DNA from: an uncultured Candidatus Saccharibacteria bacterium
GTDB taxonomy: Bacteria > Patescibacteriota > Minisyncoccia > Minisyncoccales > Staskawiczbacteraceae
NCBI GenBank assembly: GCA_964427585.1
Contig: CAYRVC010000001.1
Span: 34,220 to 98,219, forward strand
Reading direction: 5' to 3'
Length of the DNA stretch: 64,000 nucleotides
A program made the translations under genes and the position numbers. The notes beneath the pieces are model-generated. The model was not told the origin of the DNA. It made no database searches and was given only the letters and a program-made list of their open reading frames with translations. Below are positions 6,320 to 44,434 of this stretch, piece by piece (position 1 is the first letter of the stretch; every line of letters begins with the position of its first letter).

Positions 6320-6336
6320 TTTGAAATATAAAAGTT

Positions 6337-7614
6337 ATGTGGCACGAAAAAATACTATTTCTTTTCAGAAACAAAGAATTAAGGAATAAAATTTTATTTA
6401 TAATTTTCCTTTTTGTTGTTTTCAGAATCGCCGCCAATATCCCCATTCCCGGAATCGGAACTGAAAATTTAAGGAAATTTTTTGCCGAAAATCAGGTTTT
6501 CGGCCTTTTAAATGTTTTTGCCGGCGGAGCTTTGAGCAATTTTTCAATAATTCTGCTGGGGCTCGGGCCTTATATCACAGCCACCATCATCTTGCAATTG
6601 CTTACCATGATTTTTCCGGCGCTGGAAAAAATGTACAAAGAAGAAGGCGAGGCCGGCCGCCATAAATTCAACCAATATTCAAGATTACTGACCATTCCCC
6701 TGGCTTTTTTTGAAGGATACGGAATGCTGACTGTTTTCCAAAGGCAAGGGATAATTTCCGGCCTTTCTCCAGAAATTTTATTGAGCTCCGTCATCACCAT
6801 TGCCGCGGGAGCTATGTTTTTGATGTGGCTGGGAGAAATTATTTCCGAGCAGGGCATGGGGAACGGCATTTCTCTTTTGATATTTGCGGGAATAGTGGCC
6901 AATCTTCCGATAAACATATTCCAGACATTCGTAAGCTGGGATCCTTCCAAAATCCCTTCTTATCTGCTGTTTTTTTTCCTGTCTTTGGTTATAATCGCCG
7001 GCGTTGTTTTAATTACGGAAGCCCGCAGGAACATACTTGTTTCCTACGCCAAAAGGGTGAGGGGGTCAAAGATGTACGGCGGGTTCTCGACATATCTGCC
7101 TTTGAATGTAAACCCGGCCGGAGTCATTCCTATTATCTTCGCCCTTTCAGTTCTTTTGTTTCCGGGGATGATTGCTAACTTTTTGGGAGGGGTTCCGGGG
7201 GCAGTGGGGAATGTCGCCAACTCCATGGGAAATTTTTTCAATAATATTTGGGTCAACGGCATTTTGTATTTTATTCTTGTGATTATGTTTACCTATTTTT
7301 ACACTGCCGTTACTTTTGACCCGAAAACCATAGCTGAAAATCTGCAAAAAATGGGCGGGTTTATTCCAGGCGTAAGGCCGGGCAGGCCCACGGCTGATTT
7401 TTTAAAGCATATTTTAAACAGGGTTTTGTTCACCGGCGCCATTTTTCTGGCCTTAATAGCCGTTCTTCCGTCTATTGTTGCCGGACTTACCGGGGTAACA
7501 GGCTTCACTTTTTTGATAGGAGGAACATCGCTTTTAATAGTTGTAAGCGTTGTGCTGGAAACAGTGCGGCAGATAAACGCCCAGCTCGAGATGAGGGAAT
7601 ACGACACTTTTTAA
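6337..7614 (+). CDS. secY: Preprotein translocase subunit SecY
   Basis: 425 aa, multi-TM; IPIPGI, GGALSNFSIILLGLGPYITATIILQLL, GISLLIFAGIV; operon position. Confidence 0.95.
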   Translation: MWHEKILFLFRNKELRNKILFIIFLFVVFRIAANIPIPGIGTENLRKFFAENQVFGLLNVFAGGALSNFSIILLGLGPYITATIILQLLTMIFPALEKMYKEEGEAGRHKFNQYSRLLTIPLAFFEGYGMLTVFQRQGIISGLSPEILLSSVITIAAGAMFLMWLGEIISEQGMGNGISLLIFAGIVANLPINIFQTFVSWDPSKIPSYLLFFFLSLVIIAGVVLITEARRNILVSYAKRVRGSKMYGGFSTYLPLNVNPAGVIPIIFALSVLLFPGMIANFLGGVPGAVGNVANSMGNFFNNIWVNGILYFILVIMFTYFYTAVTFDPKTIAENLQKMGGFIPGVRPGRPTADFLKHILNRVLFTGAIFLALIAVLPSIVAGLTGVTGFTFLIGGTSLLIVVSVVLETVRQINAQLEMREYDTF

Positions 7615-7660
7615 TCTGTTGATTAAAAAGTGAATTTTAAATTTTTAATTTTAAATTTTT

Positions 7661-8350
7661 ATGAAACAGGTTATAATTTTATTCGGGCCTCCGGGGGCGG
7701 GCAAAGGCACGCAGGCCGAGCTTCTGGCAGATAAACTGGGGTATTATCACTTTGAATCAAGCAAGGTTATCGAAGCCTGTTTTCAAAACGAACAGCAGGA
7801 AAAAGTTTTCAGCATAGAAGGAAACGATTACAAAGTAGGCGACGAAAAAAAAAGATGGGAGCAGGGCTTGCTCAACAGCCCTCCTTTTGTTGTTTTTTTG
7901 ATGGCTGAAAGGATAAAGGAATTGGCGGAGATGGGAAAATCAATTATTTTTTCCGGTTCCCCCAGAACGGTTTACGAGGCCGAAAGGGAAATTCCTCTTT
8001 TAAAAGAGCTTTACGGTCTGGAGAATATAAATTTTCTTTTTTTAGAAATTTCTCCTAAAACCACTATTTTTAGGAACTCTAACAGGAGGATATGCGAGCT
8101 TATCCGTCATTCTATTTTGTTTACTCCAGAAACGGAAAAATTAACCTTTTGTCCTTTAGACGGGTCAAAACTGGTAAGGAGAAAGGGTTTAGATGAACTG
8201 GCGACAATTAAAAAACGCTTGGAAATTTTCAAAGAGCAAACGTTTCCCGTTTTAGAGACAGTCAAAAGAGCGGAGATAGAAATTAAAAAAGTGAACGGCG
8301 AACAGTGGGTGGCGGATGTTTTTCAGGATGTTCTCGGAGCGCTTAAATAA
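7661..8350 (+). CDS. adk: Adenylate kinase
   Basis: P-loop ILFGPPGAGKGTQAELLA, followed by a lid-like segment. It follows secY. Confidence 0.85.
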   Translation: MKQVIILFGPPGAGKGTQAELLADKLGYYHFESSKVIEACFQNEQQEKVFSIEGNDYKVGDEKKRWEQGLLNSPPFVVFLMAERIKELAEMGKSIIFSGSPRTVYEAEREIPLLKELYGLENINFLFLEISPKTTIFRNSNRRICELIRHSILFTPETEKLTFCPLDGSKLVRRKGLDELATIKKRLEIFKEQTFPVLETVKRAEIEIKKVNGEQWVADVFQDVLGALK

Positions 8351-9519: not shown

Positions 9520-9529
9520 CAAAGGCGCA

Positions 9530-9567
9530 AAGTGAGGTTTTTTCACTCGAGTGAAAAAACCTCACTT
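9530..9567. repeat. 38-nt perfect palindrome, copy 1 of the TTTTTTCACTCGAGTGAAAAAA family
   Basis: AAGTGAGGTTTTTTCACTCGAGTGAAAAAACCTCACTT is its own reverse complement. Confidence 0.95.
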
Positions 9568-9616
9568 TAATCGTCATTTTTATGTTATAATAAAAATAAG
9601 CATAAGAAAATAAAAA

Positions 9617-10159
9617 ATGAAAGACTCGGTGATAAAACAAATATTATTGCATTTATATGATTGTATAGATTATGGTTTCAGTTACAGGGTGAAAAAAGGT
9701 CTTTTTATTGATAGTTTATTTCCCGGCGGCTGGAAAAAATTTAGCAAAGAAGAAATAAAAGAAGGCATTAAATATTTAAAAACAACTAATTTTATTACAA
9801 GAAAAGAAGGGTATGATGGTTCGGTGATTATTTCATTAACCGAAAAAGGCAAACTTCGAGCGCTTAATATAAGATTCAAAAGATTAAATTATAAAAAAGA
9901 GCCTTGGGATAAAAAATGGCGAATGGTTGCATTTGATATTCCAAACACGCATAGAAAGGGAAGGGATGCTGTGAGGTATCGCTTGCGCACCGCAGGATTT
10001 TATGAATTGCAGGAAAGTATACTTATATATCCTTATGATTGCGAGAGTGAAATTAGAGATTTTATAACGCTGTTTAAACTCGAAAAATACGTCCGTTTTG
10101 CATTATTGGATTTTATTGATGGAGAGGATTATCTTGTAAAATTATTCAAGCTGGTTTAG
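9617..10159 (+). CDS. PaaX-like / Cas2-fold putative transcriptional regulator
   Basis: The N-terminal half is wHTH-like. WRMVAFDIPNTHRKGRDAVRYRLRTAGFYELQESILIYPYD matches the PaaX-type middle-domain pattern. The gene is visibly AT-rich. Confidence 0.55.
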   Translation: MKDSVIKQILLHLYDCIDYGFSYRVKKGLFIDSLFPGGWKKFSKEEIKEGIKYLKTTNFITRKEGYDGSVIISLTEKGKLRALNIRFKRLNYKKEPWDKKWRMVAFDIPNTHRKGRDAVRYRLRTAGFYELQESILIYPYDCESEIRDFITLFKLEKYVRFALLDFIDGEDYLVKLFKLV

Positions 10160-10193
10160 GTATGTTTTTTCACTCGAGTGAAAAAATATACCT
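10158..10193. repeat. 36-nt palindrome (1 mismatch), copy 2 of the TTTTTTCACTCGAGTGAAAAAA family
   Basis: AGGTATGTTTTTTCACTCGAGTGAAAAAATATACCT. It overlaps the TAG stop of the preceding gene. Confidence 0.95.
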
Positions 10194-10256
10194 ATTGCAC
10201 ATTTATTTTTGTGGTAGAATAAAATAAGAATATTTTTAAATTTAAATCTAAATTTT

Positions 10257-11012
10257 ATGAAAAATTTGATTGCGGGGAATTGGAAGATGAATCCGGAAAC
10301 CGAAAAAGAAGCTAAGGCTCTTTTTTTAAAAATTAAAAAAGGAATAAAAAATATAAAGAATGCCGAGGTGGTTTTGTGTCCGCCGTTTTTGTATTTGCCC
10401 GTGTTGGCCAATATTCAGCCTGGCAAGATTTTTTTAGGTTCGCAGAATTGCTTCTGGGAAGAAAAAGGCGCTTTTACCGGCGAAATTTCAGCCTTAATGT
10501 TGAAGGATTTTAAGGTAAAGTACATTATTTTGGGGCATTCTGAGCGCCGGAAATATTTTAATGAAACAAACGAGCTAATTAATAAAAAAATAAAAAAAGC
10601 ATTGGATGAGGGCCTTAAAGTTATTTTTTGCGCAGGCGAGACGGCTGAGGAGAAAAGTAGCGGAAAAAAATTAGATGCTTTAGGCCGTCAGCTTAGGGAA
10701 GGGTTAAAAAATATTCCAAAAAACAAAATAAATGGCATAAGCATTGCCTATGAACCCGTCTGGTCGATTGGAACAGGGAATAATTGTTCCGTTGAAGAAA
10801 CGATGACTTCTGTTTTATCCATAAGAAAAATAATCGCGGATTTATACGGCAGGAAATCAGCTACCGGAATGAGGATTCTTTACGGCGGAAGCGTAAACAG
10901 CAAGAATGCAGGCCACTATATAAAGGAATCTAAGGCCAACGGCCTGTTGGCAGGAGGAGCTTCAACGAACGCGGAGGAGTTTATAAAAATTGTAAAATCT
11001 TCAGAACCTTGA
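10257..11012 (+). CDS. tpiA: Triosephosphate isomerase
   Basis: IAGNWKMN, ILGHSERR, AYEPVWSIGTG, YGGSV. Confidence 0.93.
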   Translation: MKNLIAGNWKMNPETEKEAKALFLKIKKGIKNIKNAEVVLCPPFLYLPVLANIQPGKIFLGSQNCFWEEKGAFTGEISALMLKDFKVKYIILGHSERRKYFNETNELINKKIKKALDEGLKVIFCAGETAEEKSSGKKLDALGRQLREGLKNIPKNKINGISIAYEPVWSIGTGNNCSVEETMTSVLSIRKIIADLYGRKSATGMRILYGGSVNSKNAGHYIKESKANGLLAGGASTNAEEFIKIVKSSEP

Positions 11013-11169
11013 GTTACGAAATGCCTTACGAATTATTTTATTTTGGATTGCGGGCGAGACTTTGCAAAAATTTTGAGGCATATACGGAGTATTCTGCCTC
11101 AAAATTTTTACAAAGGCGCAGCCCAAGCCAAAATATAAATAATTTAAGCGCATTTTGTAACTCAAGGTT
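11005..11169 (+). repeat. Family-A nested-hairpin element (MITE-like), copy 1, about 165 nt
   Basis: Near-identical to 44273-44434. Terminal inverted repeats are AACCTTGAGTTACGAAATGCC and their complement. The central hairpin is AAAATTTTGAGGCA/TGCCTCAAAATTTT. Confidence 0.9.
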
Positions 11170-11249
11170 CATAATAAAAAGTCGTTGGATGTATCTCAAA
11201 ATATATTCGCTGATTGACATAAGGGATATTTTTTAATAGCATAAGTAAT

Positions 11250-11789: not shown

Positions 11790-11962
11790 CCAATTTTATA
11801 AAAGTAAAAGTGGAATTTTTAATTTTAAATTTTTAAATAATTCTTAAATTTTTTAATTTTTAAACAACGCCGGAAACGGCGTTTTTAGTTGAACAGGGAA
11901 GAGTAAAAAATGGGTGGCTGGGCATTATTGCGTTGTAAAAATTTTTGGTATAAAATAGTTAA

Positions 11963-16596: not shown

Positions 16597-17226
16597 ATGA
16601 AAGACGATCAATGTAAAATTTGCAGGACATTCGGCCAGAAGCTCTTTTTGAAAGGAGAGCGTTGTTTGTCTCCAAAATGCGCCATTACCAGAAGGGCATA
16701 CTCTCCCAATGCTCAGAAAAAAAGAAAAAAAGGCGCGCCTTCCGGATATAAAAAATCGCTGGAACAAAAACAGGCTATTAAAAAATGGTATGGTCTTTCT
16801 GAAAAACAATTTAAGAAATATGTTAATGAGACATTGAAAAAAATAGGCAAGGTGGAAAATGTTTCAGAAGAGCTTGTAAAAAAGCTGGAAAAAAGGCTGG
16901 ATAATGTCATTTTTCGGCTGGGGCTTGCCAAATCCAGGCCGCAGGCCAGGCAAATGGTCAGCCACGGATATTTTTTGATAAACGGCAAACGGGTCAATAT
17001 TCCATCTTATTCGGTTAAAAAAGAAGACAAAGTTTCTTTGAAAGAATCGAAGAAGAAAAAAACAATTTTAAAAGACATATCAGCCGAATTGAAAAATAGG
17101 GAAGCTCCAGTGTGGCTTTTGCTGGACAGGGAAAAGCTGGAAGCAAAGGTGGTGGCTGACCCAACTATGGAAGAAGCCAATCCGCCCGCTGAAATCTCTT
17201 TAGTTTTTGAATTTTATTCACGTTAA
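16597..17226 (+). CDS. rpsD: 30S ribosomal protein S4
   Basis: CKICRTFGQKLFLKGERC.SPKC...RLDNVIFRLGLAKSRPQARQMVSHGYFLINGKRVNIPSY. Confidence 0.94.
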   Translation: MKDDQCKICRTFGQKLFLKGERCLSPKCAITRRAYSPNAQKKRKKGAPSGYKKSLEQKQAIKKWYGLSEKQFKKYVNETLKKIGKVENVSEELVKKLEKRLDNVIFRLGLAKSRPQARQMVSHGYFLINGKRVNIPSYSVKKEDKVSLKESKKKKTILKDISAELKNREAPVWLLLDREKLEAKVVADPTMEEANPPAEISLVFEFYSR

Positions 17227-17371
17227 AATACGAATTTTATAATTTTTAATTTTATAATTTTGCAAATAATTTTTTAATAACAGAATTTTTAAACACGACA
17301 GCGTTGTTTAGAAATTTAAAAATTAGAGAATTACTTAAAAATTAAAAATTGGAAATTAAAAATTTAGCAAT
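17227..17371. repeat. AT-only imperfect long inverted repeat in the rpsD-rpoA spacer
   Basis: Arms built from AATTTTTAATTTTATAATTTT-type units flank a central AAACACGACAGCGTTGTTT. Confidence 0.5.
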
Positions 17372-24986: not shown

Positions 24987-25014
24987 AACATAAAACTCTG
25001 ATTAGGCCGGGTAA

Positions 25015-25040
25015 GGTTTTTTCACTCGAGTGAAAAAACC
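25015..25040. repeat. 26-nt perfect palindrome, copy 3 of the TTTTTTCACTCGAGTGAAAAAA family
   Basis: GGTTTTTTCACTCGAGTGAAAAAACC is identical to the inner 26 nt of copy 1. Confidence 0.95.
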
Positions 25041-26499: not shown

Positions 26500-27507
26500 A
26501 TGTTCAGCGCTAAAATTGCCATTGATTTGGGAACATGCAACTCTTTAGTTTATGTTTTGGGCAAAGGCATTGTTTTATACGAGCCTTCGGTGGTTGCCGT
26601 GTCTTTGACCGACAATAAAATCCTGGCAGTGGGGGAAGGGGCAAAGGAAATGATCGGCCGCACTCCAGCTGACATCAAGGTTTACAGGCCGTTAAAAGAC
26701 GGGGTCATAGCCGACTACCGCGTAACCCAGGCAATGATCCGCTATTTTATTGACAAGACGGCAGGCCGGTTTAAATTTTTTAAGCCGGAGCTGGTGATAT
26801 CTGTTCCGGCCGGCATTACCAGCACGGAAAGGAGGGCGGTTATTGAAGCGGCTTTGTCTGCCGGGGCAAAGCAGGCATATGTGGCCAAAGAGCCCATATT
26901 GGCTGCCATTGGAGCCGGCATTCCCATTAACTCATGCTCAGGACATATGATTATTGATATTGGAGGGGGCACTTCGGAGGTGGCTGTCATTTCTTTGGGC
27001 GGAATAGTCACATCGCATTCGGTAAGGGTGGCCGGAGACAAAATGGACGCGGCAATAGGGGAGTATATAAAAAGAAAATATAACCTGGCAATAGGAACGC
27101 AATCGGCGGAAGAAATAAAAATAAAGGTAGGCGCCGCCCTTTTGCAGAAAGAGTCGAAATATTTGGAAATACAGGGCAGGGATTTGATTTTGGGACTGCC
27201 CCGCAATATCAAGGTTTCAAACAACGAAATTTGCGAAGCGGTTTCCGACGTGCTGGCTGAAATAGTGCAGGCCGCCAAACACGTGCTAAGCGAAACTCCT
27301 CCAGAGCTTTCCGCAGATATAATGAACAAAGGGATAGTAATGGCCGGAGGAGGATCTTTGCTTCCCAAAATAAACGAGCTTGTTGCGAACAGCACGGGCG
27401 TTCCTTGTTTTGTGGCCGAAGAGCCTTTGTTTTGCGTGGTAAAAGGAACGGGAATAGTTTTAGAGCATTTGGACGAATACAAGAAAGTGGTAATGTCTAA
27501 AAAATAA
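26500..27507 (+). CDS. mreB: Rod-shape/actin-like protein MreB (paralogue 1)
   Basis: IAIDLGTCNSLVYV...EPSVVAV...RPLKDGVIADY...IIDIGGGTSEVAVISLGGIV...GIVMAGGGSLL. Confidence 0.9.
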   Translation: MFSAKIAIDLGTCNSLVYVLGKGIVLYEPSVVAVSLTDNKILAVGEGAKEMIGRTPADIKVYRPLKDGVIADYRVTQAMIRYFIDKTAGRFKFFKPELVISVPAGITSTERRAVIEAALSAGAKQAYVAKEPILAAIGAGIPINSCSGHMIIDIGGGTSEVAVISLGGIVTSHSVRVAGDKMDAAIGEYIKRKYNLAIGTQSAEEIKIKVGAALLQKESKYLEIQGRDLILGLPRNIKVSNNEICEAVSDVLAEIVQAAKHVLSETPPELSADIMNKGIVMAGGGSLLPKINELVANSTGVPCFVAEEPLFCVVKGTGIVLEHLDEYKKVVMSKK

Positions 27508-30815: not shown

Positions 30816-31023
30816 AAAACAAAACCCCGTACGCTATTTACGAGCAACCATCCGGAAGCCCACGCACGAGGATTTACTTGTTATACTGTCATTATACTTT
30901 ATTATAGGTATGTGTCAAGAGCGGATTATTTTTTACAAAAAGATAAATTTTTATTAAAGAATAAAAGTAAAAAAAGAAGACAAAGGAAAAAAAGTGATAA
31001 TGTTAATTTGAATTTTTAAAAAT

Positions 31024-32277
31024 ATGCTTCAATCAAAATTATTCTATAAAACAGCGAAAGAAAAGTCGGCCGATACCGAATCTATTTCACATGAATTGCT
31101 GACCCGCGCCGGGTTTGTTGACCAGCTTATGGCCGGGGTTTACACATTTTTGCCGCTGGGTTTTATGGTTTTGAAAAAAATTGAAAATATAATAAGAAAA
31201 AATATGGAAAACGCGGGCGGACAGGAAGTTTTAATGCCGGTTTTACAGCCGAAAGAAAACTGGCAGAAAACAGGCAGGTGGGAAACCCTGGACATACTTT
31301 TTAAAATAAAAGCCAGCGGCGAAAAAGAATATGCCTTAGGGCCTACCCACGAAGAAGTTATTTCTCCTCTGGCAAAGAAAATTATTTTTTCATATAAGGA
31401 CCTGCCTTTTTATCTTTTCCAGATACAGACAAAATTCAGAAACGAGCCAAGGGCGAAATCCGGCATTCTAAGGACGCGGGAATTTTTAATGAAAGACCTT
31501 TATTCTTTTCACGCAGACCAGGGAGATTTGGATAAATACTATGAAAAGATGCTAAAAGTTTATTTCAATATTTTTAAAGAATGCGGCATTTACAAAGGAG
31601 GAAAAAATCCGCATACTTACAGAACGCTGGCTTCCGGAGGAAGTTTTTCAAAATATTCAGACGAGTTTCAAACAATTACTGAAGCTGGAGAAGACATAAT
31701 TTATATCTGTAAAAAATGCCAGACTGCCGTCAATAAGGAAATTATAAGCGAAAATAAAAATTGCCCCAATTGCAAATCCGCAGATTTTGAAGAAAAAAAG
31801 GCGATTGAGGTGGGGAATATTTTTAAACTGGGAACAAAATATTCTTTGCCCTTTGATTTAAAATTCAGGGATAAGGACGGATCGGAAAAACCGGTTTTAA
31901 TGGGCTGTTACGGAATAGGGATTTCAAGGCTGATGGGCGCCGTTGCGGAGGCAAGTCACGACAACAAAGGAATAATCTGGCCTAAAAATATTGCTCCATT
32001 TTCAGCGCATTTGATTCTCGTGGAAAACAGCCGAAAGGTAAAACAGGCGGCTGATAAGATATACGACAATTTTCAAAAACAAAAAATTGAAATATTATAT
32101 GACGACAGGCAGGGAAAGTCGGTTGGAGAAAAATTTGCGGTTTCGGACTTGATTGGAATTCCGCATAGGATAGTGGTGTCTGAAAAAACACTGGCAAAAA
32201 ATTCGGTCGAAGTAAAGGAAAGGACAAAAAACCAGGCAAAATTAGTTAAGATAAAAGAATTAATAAAATTATTCTAA
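31024..32277 (+). CDS. proS: Proline--tRNA ligase, short form without an INS editing domain
   Basis: HELLTRAGFVDQLMAGVYTFLPLG, FRNEPRAKSGILRTREFLMKDLYSFH, GCYGIGISRL. A CxxC..CxxC insert lies between motifs 2 and 3. Confidence 0.9.
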   Translation: MLQSKLFYKTAKEKSADTESISHELLTRAGFVDQLMAGVYTFLPLGFMVLKKIENIIRKNMENAGGQEVLMPVLQPKENWQKTGRWETLDILFKIKASGEKEYALGPTHEEVISPLAKKIIFSYKDLPFYLFQIQTKFRNEPRAKSGILRTREFLMKDLYSFHADQGDLDKYYEKMLKVYFNIFKECGIYKGGKNPHTYRTLASGGSFSKYSDEFQTITEAGEDIIYICKKCQTAVNKEIISENKNCPNCKSADFEEKKAIEVGNIFKLGTKYSLPFDLKFRDKDGSEKPVLMGCYGIGISRLMGAVAEASHDNKGIIWPKNIAPFSAHLILVENSRKVKQAADKIYDNFQKQKIEILYDDRQGKSVGEKFAVSDLIGIPHRIVVSEKTLAKNSVEVKERTKNQAKLVKIKELIKLF

Positions 32278-32284
32278 TTAACCT

Positions 32285-32412
32285 AATTATTCTAATTGTT
32301 CTAATCAATGTCTAATTTCTAATGACTAATTCAAAAACCCGTTTCAGACATTAGACATTTTATCATTTAGATTTGATTAGAATAATTAGAGTAATTAGAA
32401 TAATTAGACATT
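32285..32412 (+). repeat. Family-B long-hairpin element (MITE-like), copy 1
   Basis: Highly similar to 38525-38661. The left arm is made of TTCTAAT-type units and the right arm of ATTAGA-type units, which are mutually complementary. Confidence 0.9.
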
Positions 32413-32423
32413 AGTGAAAGGTT

Positions 32424-33485
32424 ATGTTTAAAAAACTATTTTCATTCTTATCTATTGACATGGCGATTGATTTGGGAACCGCTAATTCTTTGGTATATGT
32501 TAAAGACAGAGGCATAATTATAAATGAGCCGTCGGTGGTGGCAGTTAACAACAAAACAGGCCAGGTGCTGGCTATTGGCGAGGAAGCCAAAAAAATGGTG
32601 GGCCGCACGCCAGCATATATCACGGCCACCAGGCCCCTTGTGAACGGGGTAATTTCGGACTTTGAGGTAACCGAGCAGATGCTCAAATACTTTATTGAAA
32701 AAGCGGCTTCTTCAGGCAAAAAAGCGCTGGGGGTGGGTTCTTTGCCGAGGGTAATTATCGGTATTCCCTGCGGAGTCACGGAAGTTGAAAGAAGGGCGGT
32801 AAGGAACGCCGCCAAGTCAGCTGGAGCAAAAACTGTTTTTTTGATTGAAGAGCCCTTGGCTTCGGCCATTGGGGCCAAGCTTCCCATTCAGGAGGCTGGC
32901 GGAAATTTCATTGTTGATATAGGCGGAGGGACAACCGAGGTGGCCGTAATATCCTTGGGGGGAATAGTGGCTTTCAAAAGCCTGAGGGTTGCCGGCGACA
33001 AATTGAACGATGATATCGTGCAATTCGCCCAAAAAGAGTATAAGCTTTTAATAGGAGAAAGAACCGCGGAATTCATTAAAATAAGCATTGGTTCGGCCAT
33101 ACCATTGAAAGAAAAAAAGGAGATGCCGATGCGCGGCAGAAACCTGATTACCGGCCTGCCAGAAGAGGTGGTTGTTTTCAACGACGATGTCCAAAGGGCT
33201 TTGGACAGGTCGGTAAAACAGATTGTTTTGGCCATTAAAACGACAATTGAGGAAACTCCGCCGGAATTGCTGGCCGATGTGATGACGAACGGCATTTATC
33301 TGGCAGGGGGAGGCTCTCTTTTAAGGGGGCTTGATCTTCTTATCGCCAGGGAAACCAAAATGCCCTGCAAAATTATTGACGATCCTTTGACATCGGTTGT
33401 AAGGGGGGCCGGCATAGCCTTGGAAAACATAGAAAAGCTTTCGGAAGTTATGTCAAAAGACGAAGAGGAAGAAGCATTTACGTAA
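32424..33485 (+). CDS. mreB: Actin-like protein MreB (paralogue 2)
   Basis: MAIDLGTANSLVYV...EPSVVAV...RPLVNGVISDF...IVDIGGGTTEVAVISLGGIV...GIYLAGGGSLL. Confidence 0.9.
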   Translation: MFKKLFSFLSIDMAIDLGTANSLVYVKDRGIIINEPSVVAVNNKTGQVLAIGEEAKKMVGRTPAYITATRPLVNGVISDFEVTEQMLKYFIEKAASSGKKALGVGSLPRVIIGIPCGVTEVERRAVRNAAKSAGAKTVFLIEEPLASAIGAKLPIQEAGGNFIVDIGGGTTEVAVISLGGIVAFKSLRVAGDKLNDDIVQFAQKEYKLLIGERTAEFIKISIGSAIPLKEKKEMPMRGRNLITGLPEEVVVFNDDVQRALDRSVKQIVLAIKTTIEETPPELLADVMTNGIYLAGGGSLLRGLDLLIARETKMPCKIIDDPLTSVVRGAGIALENIEKLSEVMSKDEEEEAFT

Positions 33486-33489
33486 TTTA

Positions 33490-33768
33490 ATGATCAGCAA
33501 AGACGAAGTAAAACATATAGCGAAGCTGGCGAGGATTGAATTGACCGAACAGGAAATAGAAAAAATGCAAAAAGATTTGTCGTCTGTTTTGGATTATTTT
33601 GATTTGTTGAAAAAAGCCGGAAAACCCGGAAAAGAAGAGGCGATTTCCAAAAAGGTTGAAAATGCAACCAGGAAAGACGAGGCCTGCCATAGCGGTTTGG
33701 CAGACGAACTGGTTTCAGCTTCGCCTGACAGGAAAGACGATTATATCAAAGTAAAAGCAATATTATAA
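33490..33768 (+). CDS. gatC: Asp/Glu-tRNA amidotransferase subunit C
   Basis: ISKDEVKHIAKLARIELTEQEIEKMQKDLSSVLDYFDLL. TAATG overlap with gatA. Confidence 0.88.
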   Translation: MISKDEVKHIAKLARIELTEQEIEKMQKDLSSVLDYFDLLKKAGKPGKEEAISKKVENATRKDEACHSGLADELVSASPDRKDDYIKVKAIL

Positions 33769-35186
33769 TGCATTTAGTAGGCTTAACAATCAAACAGGCC
33801 CACGAAGGTCTTTTAAAAAAAGATTTTTCAGCCGTTGAGCTGGCCCGGGCGTATTTATCTGAAATTAAAGCAAAAGACAAGGAACTCAACGCATTTTTGG
33901 CAGTAACGGAGGAATTGGCTTTGAGGCAGGCCGAATCGGTTGATGAAAAAATATCATCCGGCGGCGACATTCCTTTTCTGGCCGGAATTCCCTGTGCCAT
34001 AAAAGACGCAATCATGGTAAAAGACCAAAAGTGCACTGCCGGTTCTAAAATTCTGGAAAATTATACGGCTTCTTATGATGCTAAGGTAATCAAAAAACTT
34101 AAAAAAGAGGGGGCTGTAATTTTGGGGAAAACAAACCTTGATGAGTTTGCCATGGGGGGGTCTGGGGAAAATTCCGCTTTCGGCCCTACAAAAAATCCCA
34201 ATGACGAAAGCCGTGTGGCTGGCGGCAGTTCATCGGGTTCAGCCGCTTCCGTGGCGGCAAACGAGGCTTGTTTTGCCTTGGGTTCTGACACCGGGGGATC
34301 CGTGCGTTTGCCTTCGTCTTTTTGCGGCATCGTGGGATTGAAACCGACTTACGGAGCGGTTTCCCGCTTCGGCCTTATATCCTTAGCTTCTTCCTTGGAC
34401 CAAATAGGCCCCATGGCAAAAACAGTTGAAGACTGCAAAATAGTGTTTAATGCGATTAACGGTAATGACCCGCTTGATGCGACTTCCTTAGAATCAAAAA
34501 TTTCAAATTTCAAATTTCAAATTTCAAATTTAAAAATTGGCGTTCCAAAAGAGTATTTTGTAAAAGGAATGGAGCCTGAAGTTGAAAAAATAATAAACGG
34601 AACCATTAAAAAAATAGAGAGGCAGGGAGCAAAAATAGAGGAGATAAGCCTGCCGAATACTTCTTACGCCCTGGCTTGTTATTATATAATATTGCCCGCG
34701 GAAGCGTCGGCTAACCTCGCCCGCTTTGACGGCATAAAATACGGCTTGTCAAAACAGGAGAAAGATCTTTTGGATGTTTATTTAAAAACCCGGGGCAAGG
34801 GCTTTGGAGATGAAGTTAAAAGAAGGATTATGCTGGGAACATACAGCTTGTCGTCAGGCTATCATGACGCTTATTACAAAAGGGCGGTCCAGGTAAGGCA
34901 GCTGATAAAAAATGATTTTAAAGAGGCGTTCAAAAAAGTTGATTTGATAGTTTGCCCGGTTTCGCCGACCGTGGCTTTCAAGCTGGGTGAAAAAACAGCC
35001 GACCCTCTTTCAATGTATCTGGTTGACATTTATACCGTTTCCGTCAATCTGGCAGGATTGCCTGGCATCTCCTTGCCCGCAGGCAAAGCGGGAAACCTGC
35101 CCGTGGGCATCCAGCTCATAGCAAACCATTTTGAGGAGAACAAAATTTTTGCTATGGCGTCCCTAGTTGAAAAAATGGTAAAATAA
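33768..35186 (+). CDS. gatA: Asp/Glu-tRNA amidotransferase subunit A
   Basis: Amidase signature GGSSSGSAASVAA...GSDTGGSVRLPSSFCG. Confidence 0.93.
   Translation: MHLVGLTIKQAHEGLLKKDFSAVELARAYLSEIKAKDKELNAFLAVTEELALRQAESVDEKISSGGDIPFLAGIPCAIKDAIMVKDQKCTAGSKILENYTASYDAKVIKKLKKEGAVILGKTNLDEFAMGGSGENSAFGPTKNPNDESRVAGGSSSGSAASVAANEACFALGSDTGGSVRLPSSFCGIVGLKPTYGAVSRFGLISLASSLDQIGPMAKTVEDCKIVFNAINGNDPLDATSLESKISNFKFQISNLKIGVPKEYFVKGMEPEVEKIINGTIKKIERQGAKIEEISLPNTSYALACYYIILPAEASANLARFDGIKYGLSKQEKDLLDVYLKTRGKGFGDEVKRRIMLGTYSLSSGYHDAYYKRAVQVRQLIKNDFKEAFKKVDLIVCPVSPTVAFKLGEKTADPLSMYLVDIYTVSVNLAGLPGISLPAGKAGNLPVGIQLIANHFEENKIFAMASLVEKMVK
34498..34532 (+). repeat. Heptamer tandem repeat (AAATTTC x4 plus a partial unit) inside gatA
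   Basis: Read directly. It encodes SNFKFQISNLK in a variable linker. Confidence 0.9.
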
Positions 35187-35213
35187 TAATAATTATTTTG
35201 CGAAGTAAAATCT

Positions 35214-35756
35214 ATGGATTGGGAATCATTATACAACAATCTTCAGGTCAGGGATTTTATTTATTTCATTTCTTCTGCGGATATCCAGGATATGCTTTTT
35301 CCGGTAAAAGTCATCTTTATCGCTTTTGCGATATTTTTTTTAACGGCGATAATTTATTTCATGATGAACTCCAGCTATTTGAAATACCAGTTGCTTGAGG
35401 ATGTCACGGAATTTTTTTCCTGGCAGGCCTACGGACTGAAAGAGGTTTCCAAAAGATGGAATAAAATCAAAAGCAAAATAAAAGAGGATTCGGAAGCATC
35501 GTATAAGCTTGCTATAATAGAAGCCGATGAATTTTTGACCGACGTGCTGGAAGACAGAGGATATTCGGGAAAAAGCTTTGAAGAGGCGGTTGAAAAAATA
35601 GACAAAGAAACATTTTTAAACATCGGCCAGTTAAAAGAGATCCACCAGGTGCGCAATTCCATTGTTTACAATCCGGATTACAAGCTTGACATTAACCAGG
35701 CAAAAAAGATTTTAGCCACATACGAACAGGCAATCAATAACATCTGGGTATCGTGA
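35214..35756 (+). CDS. Hypothetical membrane-anchored protein
   Basis: 180-aa ORF with the TM segment VKVIFIAFAIFFLTAIIYFMM. Confidence 0.5.
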   Translation: MDWESLYNNLQVRDFIYFISSADIQDMLFPVKVIFIAFAIFFLTAIIYFMMNSSYLKYQLLEDVTEFFSWQAYGLKEVSKRWNKIKSKIKEDSEASYKLAIIEADEFLTDVLEDRGYSGKSFEEAVEKIDKETFLNIGQLKEIHQVRNSIVYNPDYKLDINQAKKILATYEQAINNIWVS

Positions 35757-35816
35757 CATAATGCATTTTAATATGCGCTAAAAACAAAAAAATGATAATA
35801 TAAAATCAAATAATAG

Positions 35817-35924
35817 CTATCTGTAAAATAACGGCCCGGCTGACCACATAATCATGCTTAAAGCAACCAGGCTTATCAGGAAGATCCATACTATTCTGAA
35901 AATTGTCTTGGGTTTTATTTTCAT
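35817..35924 (-). CDS. Possible 35-aa single-TM micro-protein
   Basis: Manual translation gives MKIKPKTIFRIVWIFLISLVALSMIMWSAGPLFYR*. I found no RBS or promoter support. Confidence 0.25.
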   Translation of the reverse strand: MKIKPKTIFRIVWIFLISLVALSMIMWSAGPLFYR

Positions 35925-35942
35925 ATTTTTCTATTTTATTGC

Positions 35943-36356
35943 ATGGTATCACATTTTACAAAAAAGCAAAAGGGAAAAACTATAAAGAACGGGTTATTCC
36001 AGGCTATAAGCATTTTTTTGGCGGTTATTCTGGTATTTTTGGTTTTTGCGGATATTAAAATTTATAAAAACAAAAAAAAACTCAATTCCCAGCTTAAGGA
36101 ATACCAGAGGCAGATTGAAGAAATAAAAAAAAGCAACGAGGAAATGGAAGAGGGGATAGCTATGGCGGATGACAGGGAATATATTGAGAAAATAGCCAGG
36201 GAGGAATTTTCAATGCAGCAGCCAGGGGAAAAAGTAGTGGCCTTTTTAACGCCTGAGAGAGAAGAAGAACCGCAACCGCCAGATAACGATAATTTTTGGA
36301 ACAGAAATTTTTTTCTAAAATGGGTAAATAATATGTGGAAGTCAGTTATAGAATAA
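35943..36356 (+). CDS. Septum formation initiator (FtsB/DivIC-like)
   Basis: TM segment, then coiled coil, then DDREYIEKIAREEFSMQQPGEKVVAF, the FtsB/DivIC signature. Confidence 0.75.
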   Translation: MVSHFTKKQKGKTIKNGLFQAISIFLAVILVFLVFADIKIYKNKKKLNSQLKEYQRQIEEIKKSNEEMEEGIAMADDREYIEKIAREEFSMQQPGEKVVAFLTPEREEEPQPPDNDNFWNRNFFLKWVNNMWKSVIE

Positions 36357-36360
36357 TTTT

Positions 36361-36431
36361 GCGGGTATGGTTCAATGGCAGAACATATCCTTCCCAAGGA
36401 TATGATACGGGTTCGATTCCCGTTGCCCGCT
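36361..36431 (+). tRNA. tRNA-Gly (anticodon CCC)
   Basis: Manual cloverleaf: acceptor GCGGGTA/TGCCCGC, anticodon loop TTCCCAA, T-arm ACGGG-TTCGATT-CCCGT. No encoded CCA. Confidence 0.9.
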
Positions 36432-36457
36432 CAAAAATTTGCGCGCAAATTTTTGAG
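36430..36457. repeat. 28-nt perfect loop-less palindrome centred on GCGCGC
   Basis: CTCAAAAATTTGCGCGCAAATTTTTGAG overlaps the tRNA-Gly 3' end. Confidence 0.9.
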
Positions 36458-36496
36458 CGAGGCTCGCCCGCCCCGAGGTATTATTATTTTAAGTTG

Positions 36497-36568
36497 CCGG
36501 AGTAGCTCAGTGGCAGAGCAACTCTTTCGTAAAGAGTAGGCCGCGAGTTCGAATCTCGCCTCCGGCTC
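36497..36568 (+). tRNA. tRNA-Thr (anticodon CGT)
   Basis: Acceptor GCCGGAG/CTCCGGC, anticodon loop TTCGTAA, T-arm GCGAG-TTCGAAT-CTCGC. Confidence 0.9.
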
Positions 36569-36579
36569 ATTGTGCGACA

Positions 36580-36625
36580 ATAGCGGTCAAAAATCTCACG
36601 ATCGTGAGATTTTTGACCGCTATTA
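36580..36625. terminator. 46-nt perfect palindrome centred on CGATCG, likely terminator of the tRNA pair
   Basis: AATAGCGGTCAAAAATCTCACGATCGTGAGATTTTTGACCGCTATT followed by ATTTCTTCTTTTT. Confidence 0.65.
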
Positions 36626-36704
36626 TTTCTTCTTTTTCTAATATTTGCGATGCTAATGCGGTTCATTGCCAGCAGGCTTAACCCCTTTTTTATTTATTGA
36701 AAAT

Positions 36705-37836
36705 ATGTTAAATTTAACCCATATGGCAGATTTAACTCCGCAAATAAAAGAGCTTGAAAAACGCCTCCGGCATTTGGGAGACTGTCTTTGAGTTGGATAG
36801 AAAGGAAATTGAAATGAAAGAGCTGGAAAAAGACACGCAAAAAATCGGTTTTTGGGATAACAAGGAAAAAGCGGCGGAGAAGACGCAAAGGTTGTCGGAT
36901 TTAAAAGAGGAAACAGAAAGAATAAAAGAATTGGAAAAAAAAATTTACGAGCTTTCAGAATTGAATGATTTGGCATTCACTGCCGGAGACGAAAATTTAG
37001 CAGAAGATTTGTTGATAAGGCATAATGAATTGAATGTTGAAATACAAAAGGAAGAGATGGAAACATTTTTGGCCGGCAAATACGATAAAAGCAACGCCAT
37101 AATGGAAATATCTTCAGGGGCAGGAGGCCAGGATTCCCAGGATTGGGTGACGATGTTATTAAGGATGTACCAGAGGTATTGCTCAAAAAAAGGATTCAAA
37201 ACGGAAATTCTTCAGCAGTCTTTCGGGGAGGCAGGCGGGCCTGAAGGCAGAATAGGCACAAAATCAGTTGCCTTGGAAATACGGGGAAGACACGCTTACG
37301 GATTTTTAAAAAAAGAAACAGGGGCGCACAGGCTGGTAAGGATTTCGCCTTTTTCCGCCCAAAAATTGCGCCACACTTCTTTTGCCCTGGTGTCTGTTCT
37401 GCCTGAAATTAAAGAGAATGATAATGAGATAAAAATAAATTCGGAAGATTTGAAAATAGACACGTTTAAGTCGTCTGGGCCGGGCGGACAATATGTAAAC
37501 AAAACGGAATCGGCCATAAGGATAACCCATATGCCAACGGGCATTGTTGTTTCATCTCAAACGGAAAGGCTTCAAGGAAAAAACAGGGAAAACGCAATGA
37601 AGATATTGTACGCCAAGCTTTACCGGCTGAACGAAGAAAAACGCCTTAAAGAACTGAAAAAAATAAAAGGAGAAAGGGTTTTGGCGGATTTCGGCAGTCA
37701 GATAAGGTCTTATGTCCTGCACCCATATAAGCTGGTGAAGGATTTGAGAACCCAATATGAAACATCGGACACCGAGGCGGTGCTCGACGGCGATTTGGAT
37801 AAATTCATAGAAGCGGAAATTCACTCGGTCAAATAA
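36705..37836 (+). CDS. prfB: Peptide chain release factor 2, requiring a programmed +1 frameshift (36705..36788 joined to 36790..37836)
   Basis: Frame 0 reads M(LNLTHM)ADLTPQIKELEKRLRHLGDCL then TGA. The +1 frame continues ELDRKEIEMKE...FWDN...SGPGGQYVNKTESAIRITH. An alternative start is at 36723. Confidence 0.9.
36775..36792 (+). promoter_or_regulatory. RF2 autoregulatory +1 frameshift site
   Basis: GGGAG (SD-like), ACTGT, then CTT TGA G. The slippery CTT is at 36786-36788 and the in-frame TGA at 36789-36791. Confidence 0.85.
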
Positions 37837-38516
37837 TGATAAAATTCGATAAAGTAACAAAAGTTTACCCCCCCGACAGCCTTGTGCTGGAAGATATTTC
37901 TTTTGAAATAAAAGAAGGGGAGTTTGTATCTATAGTGGGAAAATCCGGAGCCGGAAAAACAACCTTAACCCGCCTGCTTTTAGGGCTGGAAGAGCCGACC
38001 TCCGGCCGTGTGTATTTTGAAGGCGTAAATGTCCATGAAGCCAGCCCGCCCGAACTCCAGGCTATCAGGAGAAAAATAGGGGTGATCTACCAGGATTATA
38101 AGCTCCTTCCGGCAAAAACAGTTTATGAAAATGTCGCCTATATAATGGAAGTTGAAGGCAAGGAAAGCAGTGATATTTCAGGATATGTCAATAACATTTT
38201 AGACATAATCGGATTAAGCGGAAAAATGAATAATTTTCCAAAAGAGCTTTCCGGCGGGGAACAGCAGAGGCTGGCCATTGCCAGGGCGCTGGTTAAAAAT
38301 CCCTTGGTGATTGTGGCCGACGAGCCTACCGGCAACCTTGATCCTTACAACACATATGAAACCATTTCCCTTTTAGAGAAAATGAACAAAGCCGGAAAAA
38401 CAGTAATGCTTCTGACCCATGACAGGGAAGTGGTGAATAAGCTTGGCAAAAGGGTCATTACTTTAGATAGCGGAAGAATCGTAAGGGACGAAGATGAAGG
38501 AAGATTTATAATATAA
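37836..38516 (+). CDS. ftsE: Cell division ATP-binding protein FtsE
   Basis: Walker [13 protein letters not shown] signature LSGGEQQR, Walker [18 protein letters not shown] overlap with prfB. Confidence 0.9.
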
Positions 38517-38524
38517 ATTATTCG

Positions 38525-38661
38525 AATTATTCTAATTGTTCTAATTATTCTAATAAATGCCTAATTTCTAATGCCTAATTCAAAAATGGTTTTTAGACAT
38601 TAGACATTTTGTCATTGGGATTTGATTAGAATAATTAAAATAATTAGGTTAATTAGACATT
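38525..38661 (+). repeat. Family-B long-hairpin element, copy 2
   Basis: Aligns to 32285-32412 with one extra TATTCTAAT unit and a few substitutions. Confidence 0.9.
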
Positions 38662-38669
38662 TTCAAAAC

Positions 38670-39584
38670 ATGCTTACTAATTTTAGAAGAATATGCAAAT
38701 TCGCCGTTGTTGATTTCAACCGCAACAAAGGCATATCCATTGCCGCAGTTTTCGTTTTGATGGTTACCATTATGCTGGTAACCGGTTTGCTGTTCTTTGA
38801 GGGAATAGCCAATTTTTTGATTTTGCAGGTGCAGGAAAAAATAGACATAACGGCCTATTTTAAAGAAGCGGCAACGGAAGAAGACATCCTAAAAGTAAGG
38901 GACGGAATCCTGAATCTTTCTCCGGAAATTAAAAATGTGAAAGTAGTTTTTAAAGAAGAAGCGATGCGGATTTTCGTTGAAAAACACAAAAACGAAGAAG
39001 TATTTTTAAAAGCCTTGGAAGAAGTGGGGACAAATCCTTTCTTCAATTCATTGAACATACAAACCGATGCCGATCCGGCCCAATACGAAGAGATTTCCAA
39101 TATTTTAGAAACGGGAGAGTTTAGCAGTTTCATTGAAAAAGTTGATTTTTCGCAGAAAAAAACCACTATTGAAAAGATTTTTTCCATAACTTCCAATATA
39201 TACAAACTCGGATTGATTTTGAGCCTTATTTCTGTTATTATTGCCGCATTGGTGGTTTTTAGCCTGATAAAGCTGGCCATAGACAATTCCAGGGAAGAAA
39301 TAAGCACAATGAGGATGGTTGGCGCATCAAACTGGTTTATCAGGGGGCCTTTCATCGTGCAGGGGGCTATTTACGGATTTCTGGCTTTTATCATCTGCCT
39401 TGTAATTTCCGCCTTGTCAGCCTATCTTTTGTCGCCGAAAATAGGGATTGTTCTGCCCGGCTTTAATATGTTTGATTATTTTTTGAGGAATTTGTTCTTC
39501 TTCGCCTTAATGCAGCTTGTTTTTGGAATCGGCCTTGGCATGATATCCAGCTTCATCGTTGTCAGGAGATATCTGAAAAATTAA
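38670..39584 (+). CDS. ftsX: Cell division permease-like protein FtsX
   Basis: The ATG at 38670 gives MLTNFRRICKFAVVDFNRNK, a typical FtsX start. The protein has 4 TM segments. The ORF track's 38622 start lies inside the repeat. Confidence 0.85.
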   Translation: MLTNFRRICKFAVVDFNRNKGISIAAVFVLMVTIMLVTGLLFFEGIANFLILQVQEKIDITAYFKEAATEEDILKVRDGILNLSPEIKNVKVVFKEEAMRIFVEKHKNEEVFLKALEEVGTNPFFNSLNIQTDADPAQYEEISNILETGEFSSFIEKVDFSQKKTTIEKIFSITSNIYKLGLILSLISVIIAALVVFSLIKLAIDNSREEISTMRMVGASNWFIRGPFIVQGAIYGFLAFIICLVISALSAYLLSPKIGIVLPGFNMFDYFLRNLFFFALMQLVFGIGLGMISSFIVVRRYLKN

Positions 39585-39590
39585 AATCAT

Positions 39591-39664
39591 TCCGAGGTCG
39601 TCTAATGGTAGGACGTTGCGCTCTGGACGCAAAAATTGGGGTTCGAGTCCCTGCCTCGGAGCCA
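39591..39664 (+). tRNA. tRNA-Gln (anticodon CTG), CCA encoded
   Basis: U1:A72 pair and G73 discriminator, D-arm GTCTAATGGTAGGAC, anticodon loop CTCTGGA. The T-stem has two wobble pairs. Confidence 0.8.
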
Positions 39665-39727
39665 GTCAACTATAAAAACCGGCTGAAGAAGCCGGCTTTT
39701 ATTATTTTATTTACATTTTTTATGTTG

Positions 39728-39799
39728 TGGGTGTGGAAGGAATCGAACCTTCGACCTCTATCTTATCAGGATAGCGTTCTGCCACTGAACTACACACCC
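39728..39799 (-). tRNA. tRNA-Ile (anticodon GAT)
   Basis: The reverse complement reads GGGTGTG TA GTTCAGTGGCAGAAC G CTATC CTGATAA GATAG AGGTC GAAGG TTCGATT CCTTC CACACCC A. Confidence 0.9.
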
Positions 39800-39859
39800 A
39801 GTTAATATTATCTATATGTTATCAAAAACAAGCCGACAAGTAAACCCTGCTCTATAGCC

Positions 39860-39887
39860 TTGCATATTTTAATAATTTTGCTATAAT
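39860..39887 (+). promoter_or_regulatory. Sigma-70-like promoter
   Basis: TTGCAT (39860-39865), a 16-nt spacer, then TATAAT (39882-39887). Confidence 0.5.
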
Positions 39888-39914
39888 TTAAGCCAGTTCT
39901 TTTTTAACGCCGAT

Positions 39915-40172
39915 ATGGAGGAGCGCTTTATGATTATGGGATGCTTATATTGCGACAAACCGGCTCGTTATATGCTTGTATATAAAGGACAAGATATCTA
40001 TGTTTGCGCGGAACATAGAAAAAAATTTATCGGCAGGACATGTATTGAATTTATTAACGAAGCGGAAAGGGCGATTAAGCTCTATAAAGAGCTTGAAGAA
40101 ATGGAAAAGCAAAGAGAAGATATAGGTGACGGATTTGAAAGGGAAATTAAAAAAATCAGTAAAAATTTTTGA
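39915..40172 (+). CDS. Hypothetical small Cys/His protein
   Basis: 85 aa; CLYC...C.EH could bind a metal. Followed by a terminator. Confidence 0.4.
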   Translation: MEERFMIMGCLYCDKPARYMLVYKGQDIYVCAEHRKKFIGRTCIEFINEAERAIKLYKELEEMEKQREDIGDGFEREIKKISKNF

Positions 40173-44272: not shown

Positions 44273-44434
44273 AACCTTGAGTTACGAAATGCCTTACGAA
44301 TTATTTTATTTTGGCTTGCGGGCGAGCCGAAGTAAAAATTTTGAGGCATATACGGAGTATTCTGCCTCAAAATTTTTACAAAAGCGTAGCCCAAGCCAAA
44401 ATTAAAGAATTTAAGGCATTTCGTAATTCAAGGT
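44273..44434 (+). repeat. Family-A nested-hairpin element, copy 2, about 162 nt
   Basis: Same orientation and near-identical to 11005-11169. It ends 8 nt before the ftsZ ATG. Confidence 0.9.

Follow-up and report, generated by a model that had tools for sequence, protein, structure and literature searches.

Classical IVSs of 23S rRNA combine a terminal inverted-repeat stem with an S23p ORF in the loop and tandem heptamers of variable number, and helices 9, 25, and 45 are their classical sites (PMC4990558). In Coxiella, RNase III excises the IVS, which is quickly degraded afterward. The origin and mobility of IVSs have been debated since 1990, the standing hypotheses being a "remnant of a transposition" and a "mobile element whose ORF serves mobility" (PMC4990558). 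The 23S genes of CPR bacteria contain many short, non-intron, uncharacterized insertions at IVS sites, and PF05635 ORFs occur in CPR rRNA insertions (Tsurumaki et al. 2024, PMC11270868). IVSs and the PF05635 genes within them are already known, and the short rRNA insertions of CPR have been counted and left uncharacterized. We found no published report of an IVS-type hairpin family that is also dispersed between genes as a repeat, both with and without an ORF, and our literature search on MITE or REP elements in CPR, or on links between IVSs and MITEs, returned nothing relevant.

Here, we analyze two copies of a long-hairpin element in a 64-kb stretch of CPR DNA (the window). Exact protein matches assign the window to a Candidatus Staskawiczbacteria MAG (GCA_016181665.1) and also to a Logan assembly of SRR4343430. 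These copies are probably ORF-less members of a family of IVS-type selfish hairpin elements found in several CPR (Patescibacteria) lineages. The element inserts, is dispersed, occupies rRNA sites, and associates with an ORF; the proposed tie of the window copies themselves to IVSs and PF05635 genes comes from their sequence relatives at other loci. Since both window copies are intergenic and not in a loop of helix 9, 25, or 45, they would be relatives of IVSs and not IVSs in the strict sense. Like the IVSs of Salmonella, Leptospira, Coxiella, and Campylobacter, the family has an inverted-repeat stem of tens of base pairs, an optional four-helix-bundle ORF in the loop, tandem units of 7 to 9 nt in variable number, a sporadic distribution, and members in the loops of helices 9 and 25. 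Unlike IVSs, the window copies and most other members found lie between protein-coding genes, the family is multi-copy per genome, and ORF-less forms dominate. In the comparisons made, its sequence also shows no relation to that of proteobacterial IVSs. Excision by RNase III, with no religation of the transcript, is a feature of classical IVSs and, by analogy, a putative one of this family.

Two copies of a unit-built hairpin in the window

A preliminary description of this DNA had reported copies at 32285-32412 and 38525-38661 in the same orientation. The sequences are as described, and the match extends further: repeat search and global alignment both give a gapless 147-nt match between 32266-32412 and 38515-38661, with 127/147 positions identical (86%). 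That description had also given copy 2 one extra unit, which depends on the register chosen. With copy 1 extended to 32266 there is no indel, while in the earlier register 18/18 identity is followed by a 9-nt indel; since each arm repeats nearly the same 9-nt unit, either alignment can be made. An HMM built from the two copies matches only these two in the window (E = 2e-42 and 4e-42), and its weaker reverse-strand matches arise because the element is nearly palindromic. The features of the two copies are as follows.

32266..32412, + strand: copy 1, the aligning and hairpin-forming segment (gapless alignment, RNA fold z of -9.96, empty site in the relative L039)
32273..32330, + strand: copy 1 left arm, seven CTAAT units (CTAAT run 32274-32330, predicted pairing)
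32331..32372, + strand: copy 1 center, a CAAAAACCCGTTTC loop and then AGACATTAGACATTTTATCATTTAGATT, the conserved asymmetric family core
32373..32414, + strand: copy 1 right arm, five ATTAG units, with an end that reads ...AATTAGACATT(AG)
38515..38661, + strand: copy 2, filling the ftsE-ftsX spacer (alignment with copy 1, RNA fold)
38522-38579, + strand: copy 2 left arm, CTAAT units
38580-38621, + strand: copy 2 core
38622-38657, + strand: copy 2 right arm, ATTAG units

The CTAAT units of the copy 1 left arm are spaced by 9, 9, 9, 11, 7, and 7 nt. Paired units of the form TTCTAAT-N(0-6)-TTCTAAT occur three times in the window against 0.04 expected, a count reached by 0/100 shuffles, and CTAAT and ATTAG are otherwise rarer than expected there (36 versus 84 and 42 versus 119, respectively). 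For an AACC unit in the copy 1 left arm, the GGTT unit of the copy 2 right arm is a better match than the partner unit within copy 1 (I8 94% versus I13 93% and I7 80%). Together with whole-unit differences between orthologous copies elsewhere (L011 versus L023 and L024 versus L029), this cross-copy match indicates that the arms evolve by gain, loss, and conversion of units. All six reading frames meet a stop codon within 64 nt or less in the element, and the + strand of copy 1 holds 20 stops compared to 13.2 ± 2.2 in shuffles. Contig 13 of the NCBI MAG GCA_016181665.1 breaks off within copy 2, behavior typical of a repeat.

Flanking genes and element-free relatives

The names given earlier to the neighboring genes (proS, mreB, ftsE, and ftsX) proved correct, as did the claim that copy 2 creates a false upstream start for ftsX. 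FtsX homologues of 304 amino acids cover the query from 38670, where the true ATG start lies, and the TTG at 38622 falls within the right arm of the element.

31024-32277: proS, upstream of copy 1
32275..32277, + strand: proS stop codon TAA, in native sequence that resembles a unit and takes part in the basal pairing of the copy 1 stem
32424-33485: mreB, downstream of copy 1
37836-38516: ftsE, upstream of copy 2
38514..38516, + strand: ftsE stop codon TAA, directly abutting copy 2
38622..38624, + strand: spurious TTG start of the ftsX ORF (38622-39584), made by the right arm of copy 2

At the proS-mreB junction, L039, the nearest of the relatives found (ProS 89% identical), carries no element: its proS ends in AAATTATTCTAG, and a 7-nt spacer leads to mreB. 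In L040/L041 (ProS 82% identical), the two genes overlap by 8 nt. These short or overlapping junctions identify copy 1 as an insertion of ~135 to 146 nt. The first unit of copy 1, AAATTATTCTA at 32266-32276, overlaps the proS stop codon and is homologous to AAAAATTTT in L040. The preliminary description had placed the proS stop within TTCTAAT-like repeat units; the position of the stop stands, although, judging from the element-free relative, that unit is native proS sequence. Since proS ends in AAATTATTCTAG in L039 with no element present, the inserted DNA of copy 1 starts at ~32278 and runs to 32412, possibly as far as 32423. The native unit at the end of proS either happens to resemble the terminal unit of the element or attracted it.

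The ftsE-ftsX junction also varies. Its spacer is 153 nt long in the window and 17 nt long in L037/L038 (FtsX 71% identical). In L034 (FtsX 81% identical), a 60-nt spacer at 2205-2264 carries an unrelated hairpin of CTTATAAC units, and in L035/L036 (FtsX 73% identical) a 109-nt spacer carries another unrelated unit-built hairpin. No family members were found in ~100 kb of the nearest relatives. Orthologous junctions therefore exist without the element at both sites, as had been suggested for checking, and the sequence is no conserved spacer; its sporadic presence among close relatives at proS-mreB and ftsE-ftsX is a trait shared with IVSs.

As a separate observation, the L035 spacer (9892-10000) consists of TTTTAAT and TTTCAAA arrays around a GC hairpin, and the ftsE-ftsX junction looks like a hot spot for insertions of unit-built hairpins.

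Family members at unrelated loci

Copies were sought with the 21- to 22-nt core in metagenome contigs and in contigs of one genome per species, a set that does not include the source MAG; using the core as bait biases the sample of copies toward the conserved center. The family core reads GACATTAGACATTTTGTCATTGGGATTTGATTAG, with arms of NNNCTAAT and ATTAGNNN units. Three core matches fell in species-representative contigs, from MAGs labeled Omnitrophota, Curtissbacteria, and Nealsonbacteria, and 26 in metagenome contigs, where ~20 have full arms and 5 are chance matches without arms. On the matched contigs, nhmmer recovered family members with E values of 1e-16 to 1e-39 and added further copies and half-copies; L032 holds three or four family copies in 5.2 kb. 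The earlier proposal of a multi-copy long-hairpin element is thus borne out: both window copies have a predicted hairpin, and further members, in both orientations, occupy ~18 distinct unrelated loci in CPR MAGs and metagenomes, so the family is far from confined to its two window copies.

A common plan unites these copies. A left arm of NNN-CTAAT(T) units leads to a conserved asymmetric center (…AATGACTAAAA|TTTTAGACATTAGACATTTTGTCATTGGGATTTGATTAG), where conservation also extends beyond the bait core, and a right arm of ATTAG-NNN units follows; the termini are short inverted repeats of the form AAT(T/G)…(C/A)ATT. In-situ slippage was considered as the sole origin and is ruled out by the recurrence of the asymmetric core in MAGs labeled as different phyla. 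The neighbors are mostly ordinary housekeeping genes, among them transketolase/GHMP kinase, lon/ftsW, mreC/mreD, comEC/comEA, dprA/topA, prepilin peptidase, and LCP genes. Relative to transcription, ~12 distinct loci are oriented as in the window and ~6 in the opposite direction. Two search patterns gave no matches to the element in viral contigs.

Two side observations concern the same contigs. At 484-617 of L018, the family core is combined with CGAAAT/ATTTCG arms, a sister family with the same architecture and a swapped unit vocabulary. Small GC-rich hairpins (e.g., CCCCAGTAGTAGAGCGAAGCTCACTACGGGG and CCCGCTAATGCGGGATCCCGCTGAGGCGG) are nested in copies at approximate + strand positions ~1572-1635 of L010, 4871-4955 of L013, and ~3416-3446 of L016, and look like a further type of miniature insertion.

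Copies within 23S rRNA genes

Two members lie inside 23S rRNA genes. In the Rfam LSU alignment, the element forms a 156-nt insertion in the helix 9 loop of L006 (Curtissbacteria) and fills the helix 25 loop of L021, both antisense to the window orientation. They resemble the 23IS2 and 23IS4 insertions of CPR 23S genes in occurring in the same organisms and at the same sites, in being shorter than 200 bp, and in lacking an intron signature (PMC11270868), and are probably examples of them. In that study, the insertions were uncharacterized and were linked neither to a dispersed intergenic repeat nor to the arms of PF05635 genes outside rRNA (PMC11270868).

For both rRNA copies the transcribed strand folds much better than the other one (-65.2 versus -39.9 kcal/mol in helix 9 and -45.9 versus -33.0 kcal/mol in helix 25), with more G·U pairs (8 versus 0 and 8 versus 2). 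Counted by strand, the wobble mismatch types in these two copies are likewise skewed (8 versus 1 and 9 versus 0). The better fold and the wobble pairs on the transcribed strand are evidence of selection at the RNA level within rRNA.

The L006 gene also holds a second, 141-nt insertion (6214-6355, sense strand) at Rfam model position ~285. It is a hairpin of GCGAAT/ATTCGC units with the same architecture as the family. Small CTTGTCC…GGACAAG hairpins bracket it, and similar ones adjoin the helix 9 insertion.

An ORF-bearing form

At 3367-3864 of L032, an ORF of 121 amino acids is flanked by two half-elements, one on its left (3367-3423) and one on its right (3782-3864); the neighboring genes are pgk and one of the SLOG family. 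Its product scores above threshold with both PF05635, "23S rRNA-intervening sequence protein" (E = 3e-13, 50.3 bits; cut-off, 33.8), and TIGR02436, "four helix bundle protein" (71.5 bits; cut-off, 24). The TIGRFAMs comments on TIGR02436 reportedly describe these small genes as behaving like selfish insertions. Patescibacteria encode thousands of proteins at least 75% identical to the L032 product. We took five homologues (77 to 81% identical), picked by protein similarity only, and found the CTAAT left and ATTAG right arms of the family around 5/6 PF05635 genes, namely, that of L032 and four of the five homologues (L042-L051, L052b, L054, and L057; nhmmer E values of 1e-6 to 1e-13). ORF-bearing members, with a PF05635/TIGR02436 four-helix-bundle gene (IVP) of 120 to 126 amino acids in the loop, thus occupy five independent loci: cohesin|IVP, PrgI-like|IVP|TraC-like, rpmE|IVP|prfA, dnaK…|IVP|dnaJ, and SLOG|IVP|pgk. 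All PF05635 ORFs examined run in the same direction as the neighboring genes. By tblastn, the 64-kb window contains no PF05635 gene, and its copies are without an ORF.

Removing the ORF of L032b from start to stop leaves 135 nt. This remainder matches L032a, an ORF-less copy from that contig, at 113/127 positions (89%), and the two window copies at 106/127 and 104/127 positions (~83%). L057 likewise has an ORF-less copy, between grpE and dnaK. The two forms may therefore differ by the loss, or conversely the gain, of exactly the ORF, which could have invaded the hairpin loop secondarily. The same observation, that ORF removal recreates an intact ORF-less copy so exactly, would also be expected if hairpin and gene were separate entities, an independent repeat and a gene cassette that enters hairpin loops by homing, just as it enters those of rRNA helices. 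ORF-less copies are indeed commoner in our sample, and the fifth homologue (L052a, 3410-3990 of L052) is a sister PF05635 gene set in arms of different units (CATAGCG/CGCTATG). We nevertheless regard such independence as very unlikely, as five of six genes of this protein subfamily share one arm family, which suggests co-inheritance, and none of the ORFs was seen without arms.

In both sequence and structure, PF05635 proteins are homologous to Avd, the accessory protein of diversity-generating retroelements (DGRs) (PMC10053308). The genomic setting differs: beside the PF05635 genes examined there is no reverse transcriptase, template, or variable repeat, and the flanks are housekeeping genes. 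The bAvd profile also matches a neighboring call in L047.

A 143-aa PF13366 (PDDEXK_3) gene lies between dockerin- and cohesin-like genes in L042 (1372-1803) and in L043-L051. The 403-aa cohesin-like gene is all that separates it from the PF05635 gene downstream, and it might itself be a further small selfish ORF.

Predicted fold and tests for a role in the host

Folded as RNA, each window copy forms one long imperfect hairpin with an AU-rich stem of ~55 to 60 bp. In copy 1, positions 32273-32408 are paired (-47 kcal/mol, z = -9.96), and in copy 2 positions 38522-38657 (-38.9 kcal/mol, z = -5.56); 0/200 shuffles fold as well as either copy. A long stem with complementary termini, an IVS-type trait, is therefore predicted for both. 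Evidence that the fold is maintained as RNA was sought in several ways. A covariation analysis had been suggested in the preliminary description, and RNAalifold on 18 copies gave neither an in-register consensus hairpin nor in-register covariation; because unit indels destroy the register, a column-wise test of this kind is uninformative here. Complementarity of a copy's arm to its own opposite arm does not differ from that to the arms of other copies (17.0 versus 16.2), so no copy-specific compensation was detected, and the wobble-pair strand test shows no overall bias among intergenic copies (73 G·T versus 66 A·C), strong bias being confined to the two rRNA copies and L015. With no wobble asymmetry, no own-arm fit, and no RNAalifold hairpin, there is no evidence of RNA-level selection outside rRNA.

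Rfam at the gathering threshold finds only tRNAs in the window, and at a permissive threshold the best sub-threshold matches to the element (E = 3.4 to 7) are chance snoRNA-like scores. A structured RNA in the Rfam sense is thus unsupported by the Rfam, arm-fit, and RNAalifold tests. An intrinsic terminator, defined by a short GC-rich stem with a U-tract after it, was also rejected for both window copies. A search for an RNase III signature motif in the window found none.

An alternative hypothesis is that the element serves the host in cis as a bidirectional terminator, an mRNA 3' stabilizer, an RNase III processing signal governing ftsE/ftsX or proS/mreB stoichiometry, or a CTAATT/AATTAG protein-binding array. 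The array, which the preliminary description had also raised, has as yet no support. Copies do begin at the upstream stop codon or a few nucleotides from it, are often bracketed by an A-run and a T-run, and in one case (L011/L023) lie between convergent genes, and the right arm of copy 1 contains promoter-like hexamers (TTGATT-17-TAGAAT at 32373-32401). Such promoter-like matches are, however, not above the level of shuffles (23 versus 19 ± 4.9), a terminator scan of 31000-40000 calls neither copy, no T-run follows copy 1, and a unit spacing of 7 to 9 nt fits no helical repeat. A host function is further at odds with the absence of the element from the same junctions in the closest relatives and with its occurrence in both orientations (~12 versus 6) and inside rRNA helices, and we consider it unlikely.

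Mode of spread

Target-site duplications, whose search had been suggested earlier, did not materialize: over 18 curated copies, the abutting direct repeat has a mean length of 0.61 nt, compared to 0.65 nt for mismatched flanks. A TAA-type 3-nt duplication at the element ends, judged by eye, was inconsistent, and no transposase adjoins the element at any locus listed. These results bear on a classical MITE origin, in which the element would have arisen by deletion from an insertion sequence with a DDE transposase and would be moved by that transposase in trans. A short (~110 to 150 nt), multi-copy, intergenic element with terminal inverted repeats and insertion polymorphism, and with small insertions nested inside some copies, has the outward form of a MITE, and like the Correia (Neisseria), ERIC, and RUP MITEs it is an intergenic palindromic repeat of 100 to 150 nt; their hairpins are co-transcribed with neighboring genes, as those of this family would be. 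Correia RNA is cut by RNase III. The Correia, ERIC, and RUP elements are marked by defined TIRs and TA-type target duplications and have relatives that encode a transposase. For this family, none of the three was found; among the loci fetched, its ORF-bearing relatives encode only a four-helix-bundle protein and no transposase. A MITE origin thus appears highly improbable.

The absence of target-site duplications would suit a REPIN- or IS200/IS605-like single-stranded DNA element, in which a tyrosine HUH enzyme (RAYT/TnpA) cuts at CTAA/TTAG tetranucleotides. Like REP and REPIN elements mobilized with RAYT, the family is hairpin-forming, non-autonomous, dispersed between genes, and free of target-site duplications (PMC3116915). 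Moreover, its left flank very often ends in A-rich ...TAA/ATA, both window copies share an orientation on the leading strand, and variable unit number could reflect alternative cut sites. REPINs, in contrast, are GC-rich and consist of two palindromes of ~20 nt each; they carry a GTAG motif and have a RAYT gene of their own (PMC3116915). Here, the arms are AT-rich unit arrays that form a single long hairpin instead of two subterminal ones, there is no GTAG motif, the associated protein is a helical bundle and not a nuclease, no RAYT or TnpA gene was seen at the loci listed, and the orientation bias is weak (~12:6). Judged from these loci, the HUH route seems very unlikely.

Under our preferred reading, of IVS-type selfish hairpin elements, a transcript reading through proS-mreB or ftsE-ftsX would fold into the ~55- to 60-bp AU-rich stem. 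By analogy with rRNA IVSs, this stem would be a generic substrate of RNase III, and cleavage there might separate the flanking cistrons, as cleavage in 23S rRNA would excise the insert and fragment the 23S molecule. The element may be tolerated as near-neutral. Since TAA or TAG arises in all six frames within 64 nt or less, insertion at stop codons or overlapping genes ends the upstream frame quickly, a plausible explanation of why CTAAT/ATTAG units are tolerated in compact genomes. Spread may proceed via the Avd-like protein, by host recombination at unit-like microhomology, or by an RNA-based route; the native unit-like target at the end of proS may point to microhomology, or else to sites that are …TAA/A-rich being preferred.

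We speculate further, with considerable reserve, that IVSs are only one landing site of a widespread and still active class of mobile hairpins that lacks transposase and target-site duplication. The Avd-like protein would then be a mobility or maintenance factor acting on the unit-built hairpin, and ORF-less copies would be non-autonomous parasites spreading between CPR phyla. This broader scenario is possible but rather doubtful.

Whatever its route, one sequence family exists in three states, as an ORF-less intergenic hairpin, as a hairpin around a PF05635 gene, and as an insertion in helix 9 or 25 of 23S rRNA. Combined with empty orthologous sites, these states offer a comparative system for studying where the element inserts, where it ends, how its units change, and what the Avd-like protein does. 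They also connect an oddity of rRNA known for 35 years with an intergenic repeat that is dispersed and apparently mobile. The element also explains assembly breaks, such as the NCBI MAG contig that ends inside copy 2, as well as false gene starts and C-terminal extensions in CPR annotations. From it one would also predict that transcripts of essential operons such as ftsEX are processed internally in an RNase III-dependent manner.

Other repeats in the window

A different long-hairpin repeat, presumably the Family A of the preliminary description, occurs at 11004-11170 and 44273-44417 (145 nt, 90% identical), with GC-containing arms of 47 to 50 nt (…GGATTGCGGGCGAG…). AT-rich, unit-built inverted repeats (AATTTTTAATTTTATAA… / …AAAAATTAAAAATTGG) with a small GC center at 17219-17366, 7612-7661, and 11793-11866 look like a third hairpin family of similar architecture. 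The perfect palindrome …GGTTTTTTCACTCGAGTGAAAAAACC… is present three times (9529-9568, 10157-10194, and 25011-25040), with arms of 19 to 20 bp and no loop, and might act as a bidirectional terminator or represent one more small family of repeats. A simple scan flags as terminator-like another perfect palindrome, of 23 bp (AATAGCGGTCAAAAATCTCACGA|TCGTGAG…, 36579-36624), situated between two tRNA genes and prfB.

Within the reading frame of gatA (33768-35186), a tandem array of four to five ATTTCAA heptamers lies at 34492-34530, and its translation is SKISNFKFQISNLK. An array of this heptamer also adjoins the hairpin of the L035 ftsE-ftsX spacer (9960-9995), so unit arrays may enter coding sequence as well. 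Finally, a second mreB-like gene lies ~6 kb upstream of the first, its 5' region (26515-26600) sharing 74% DNA identity with 32460-32545; the source genome thus has two MreB paralogues, as do the relatives L040/L041.
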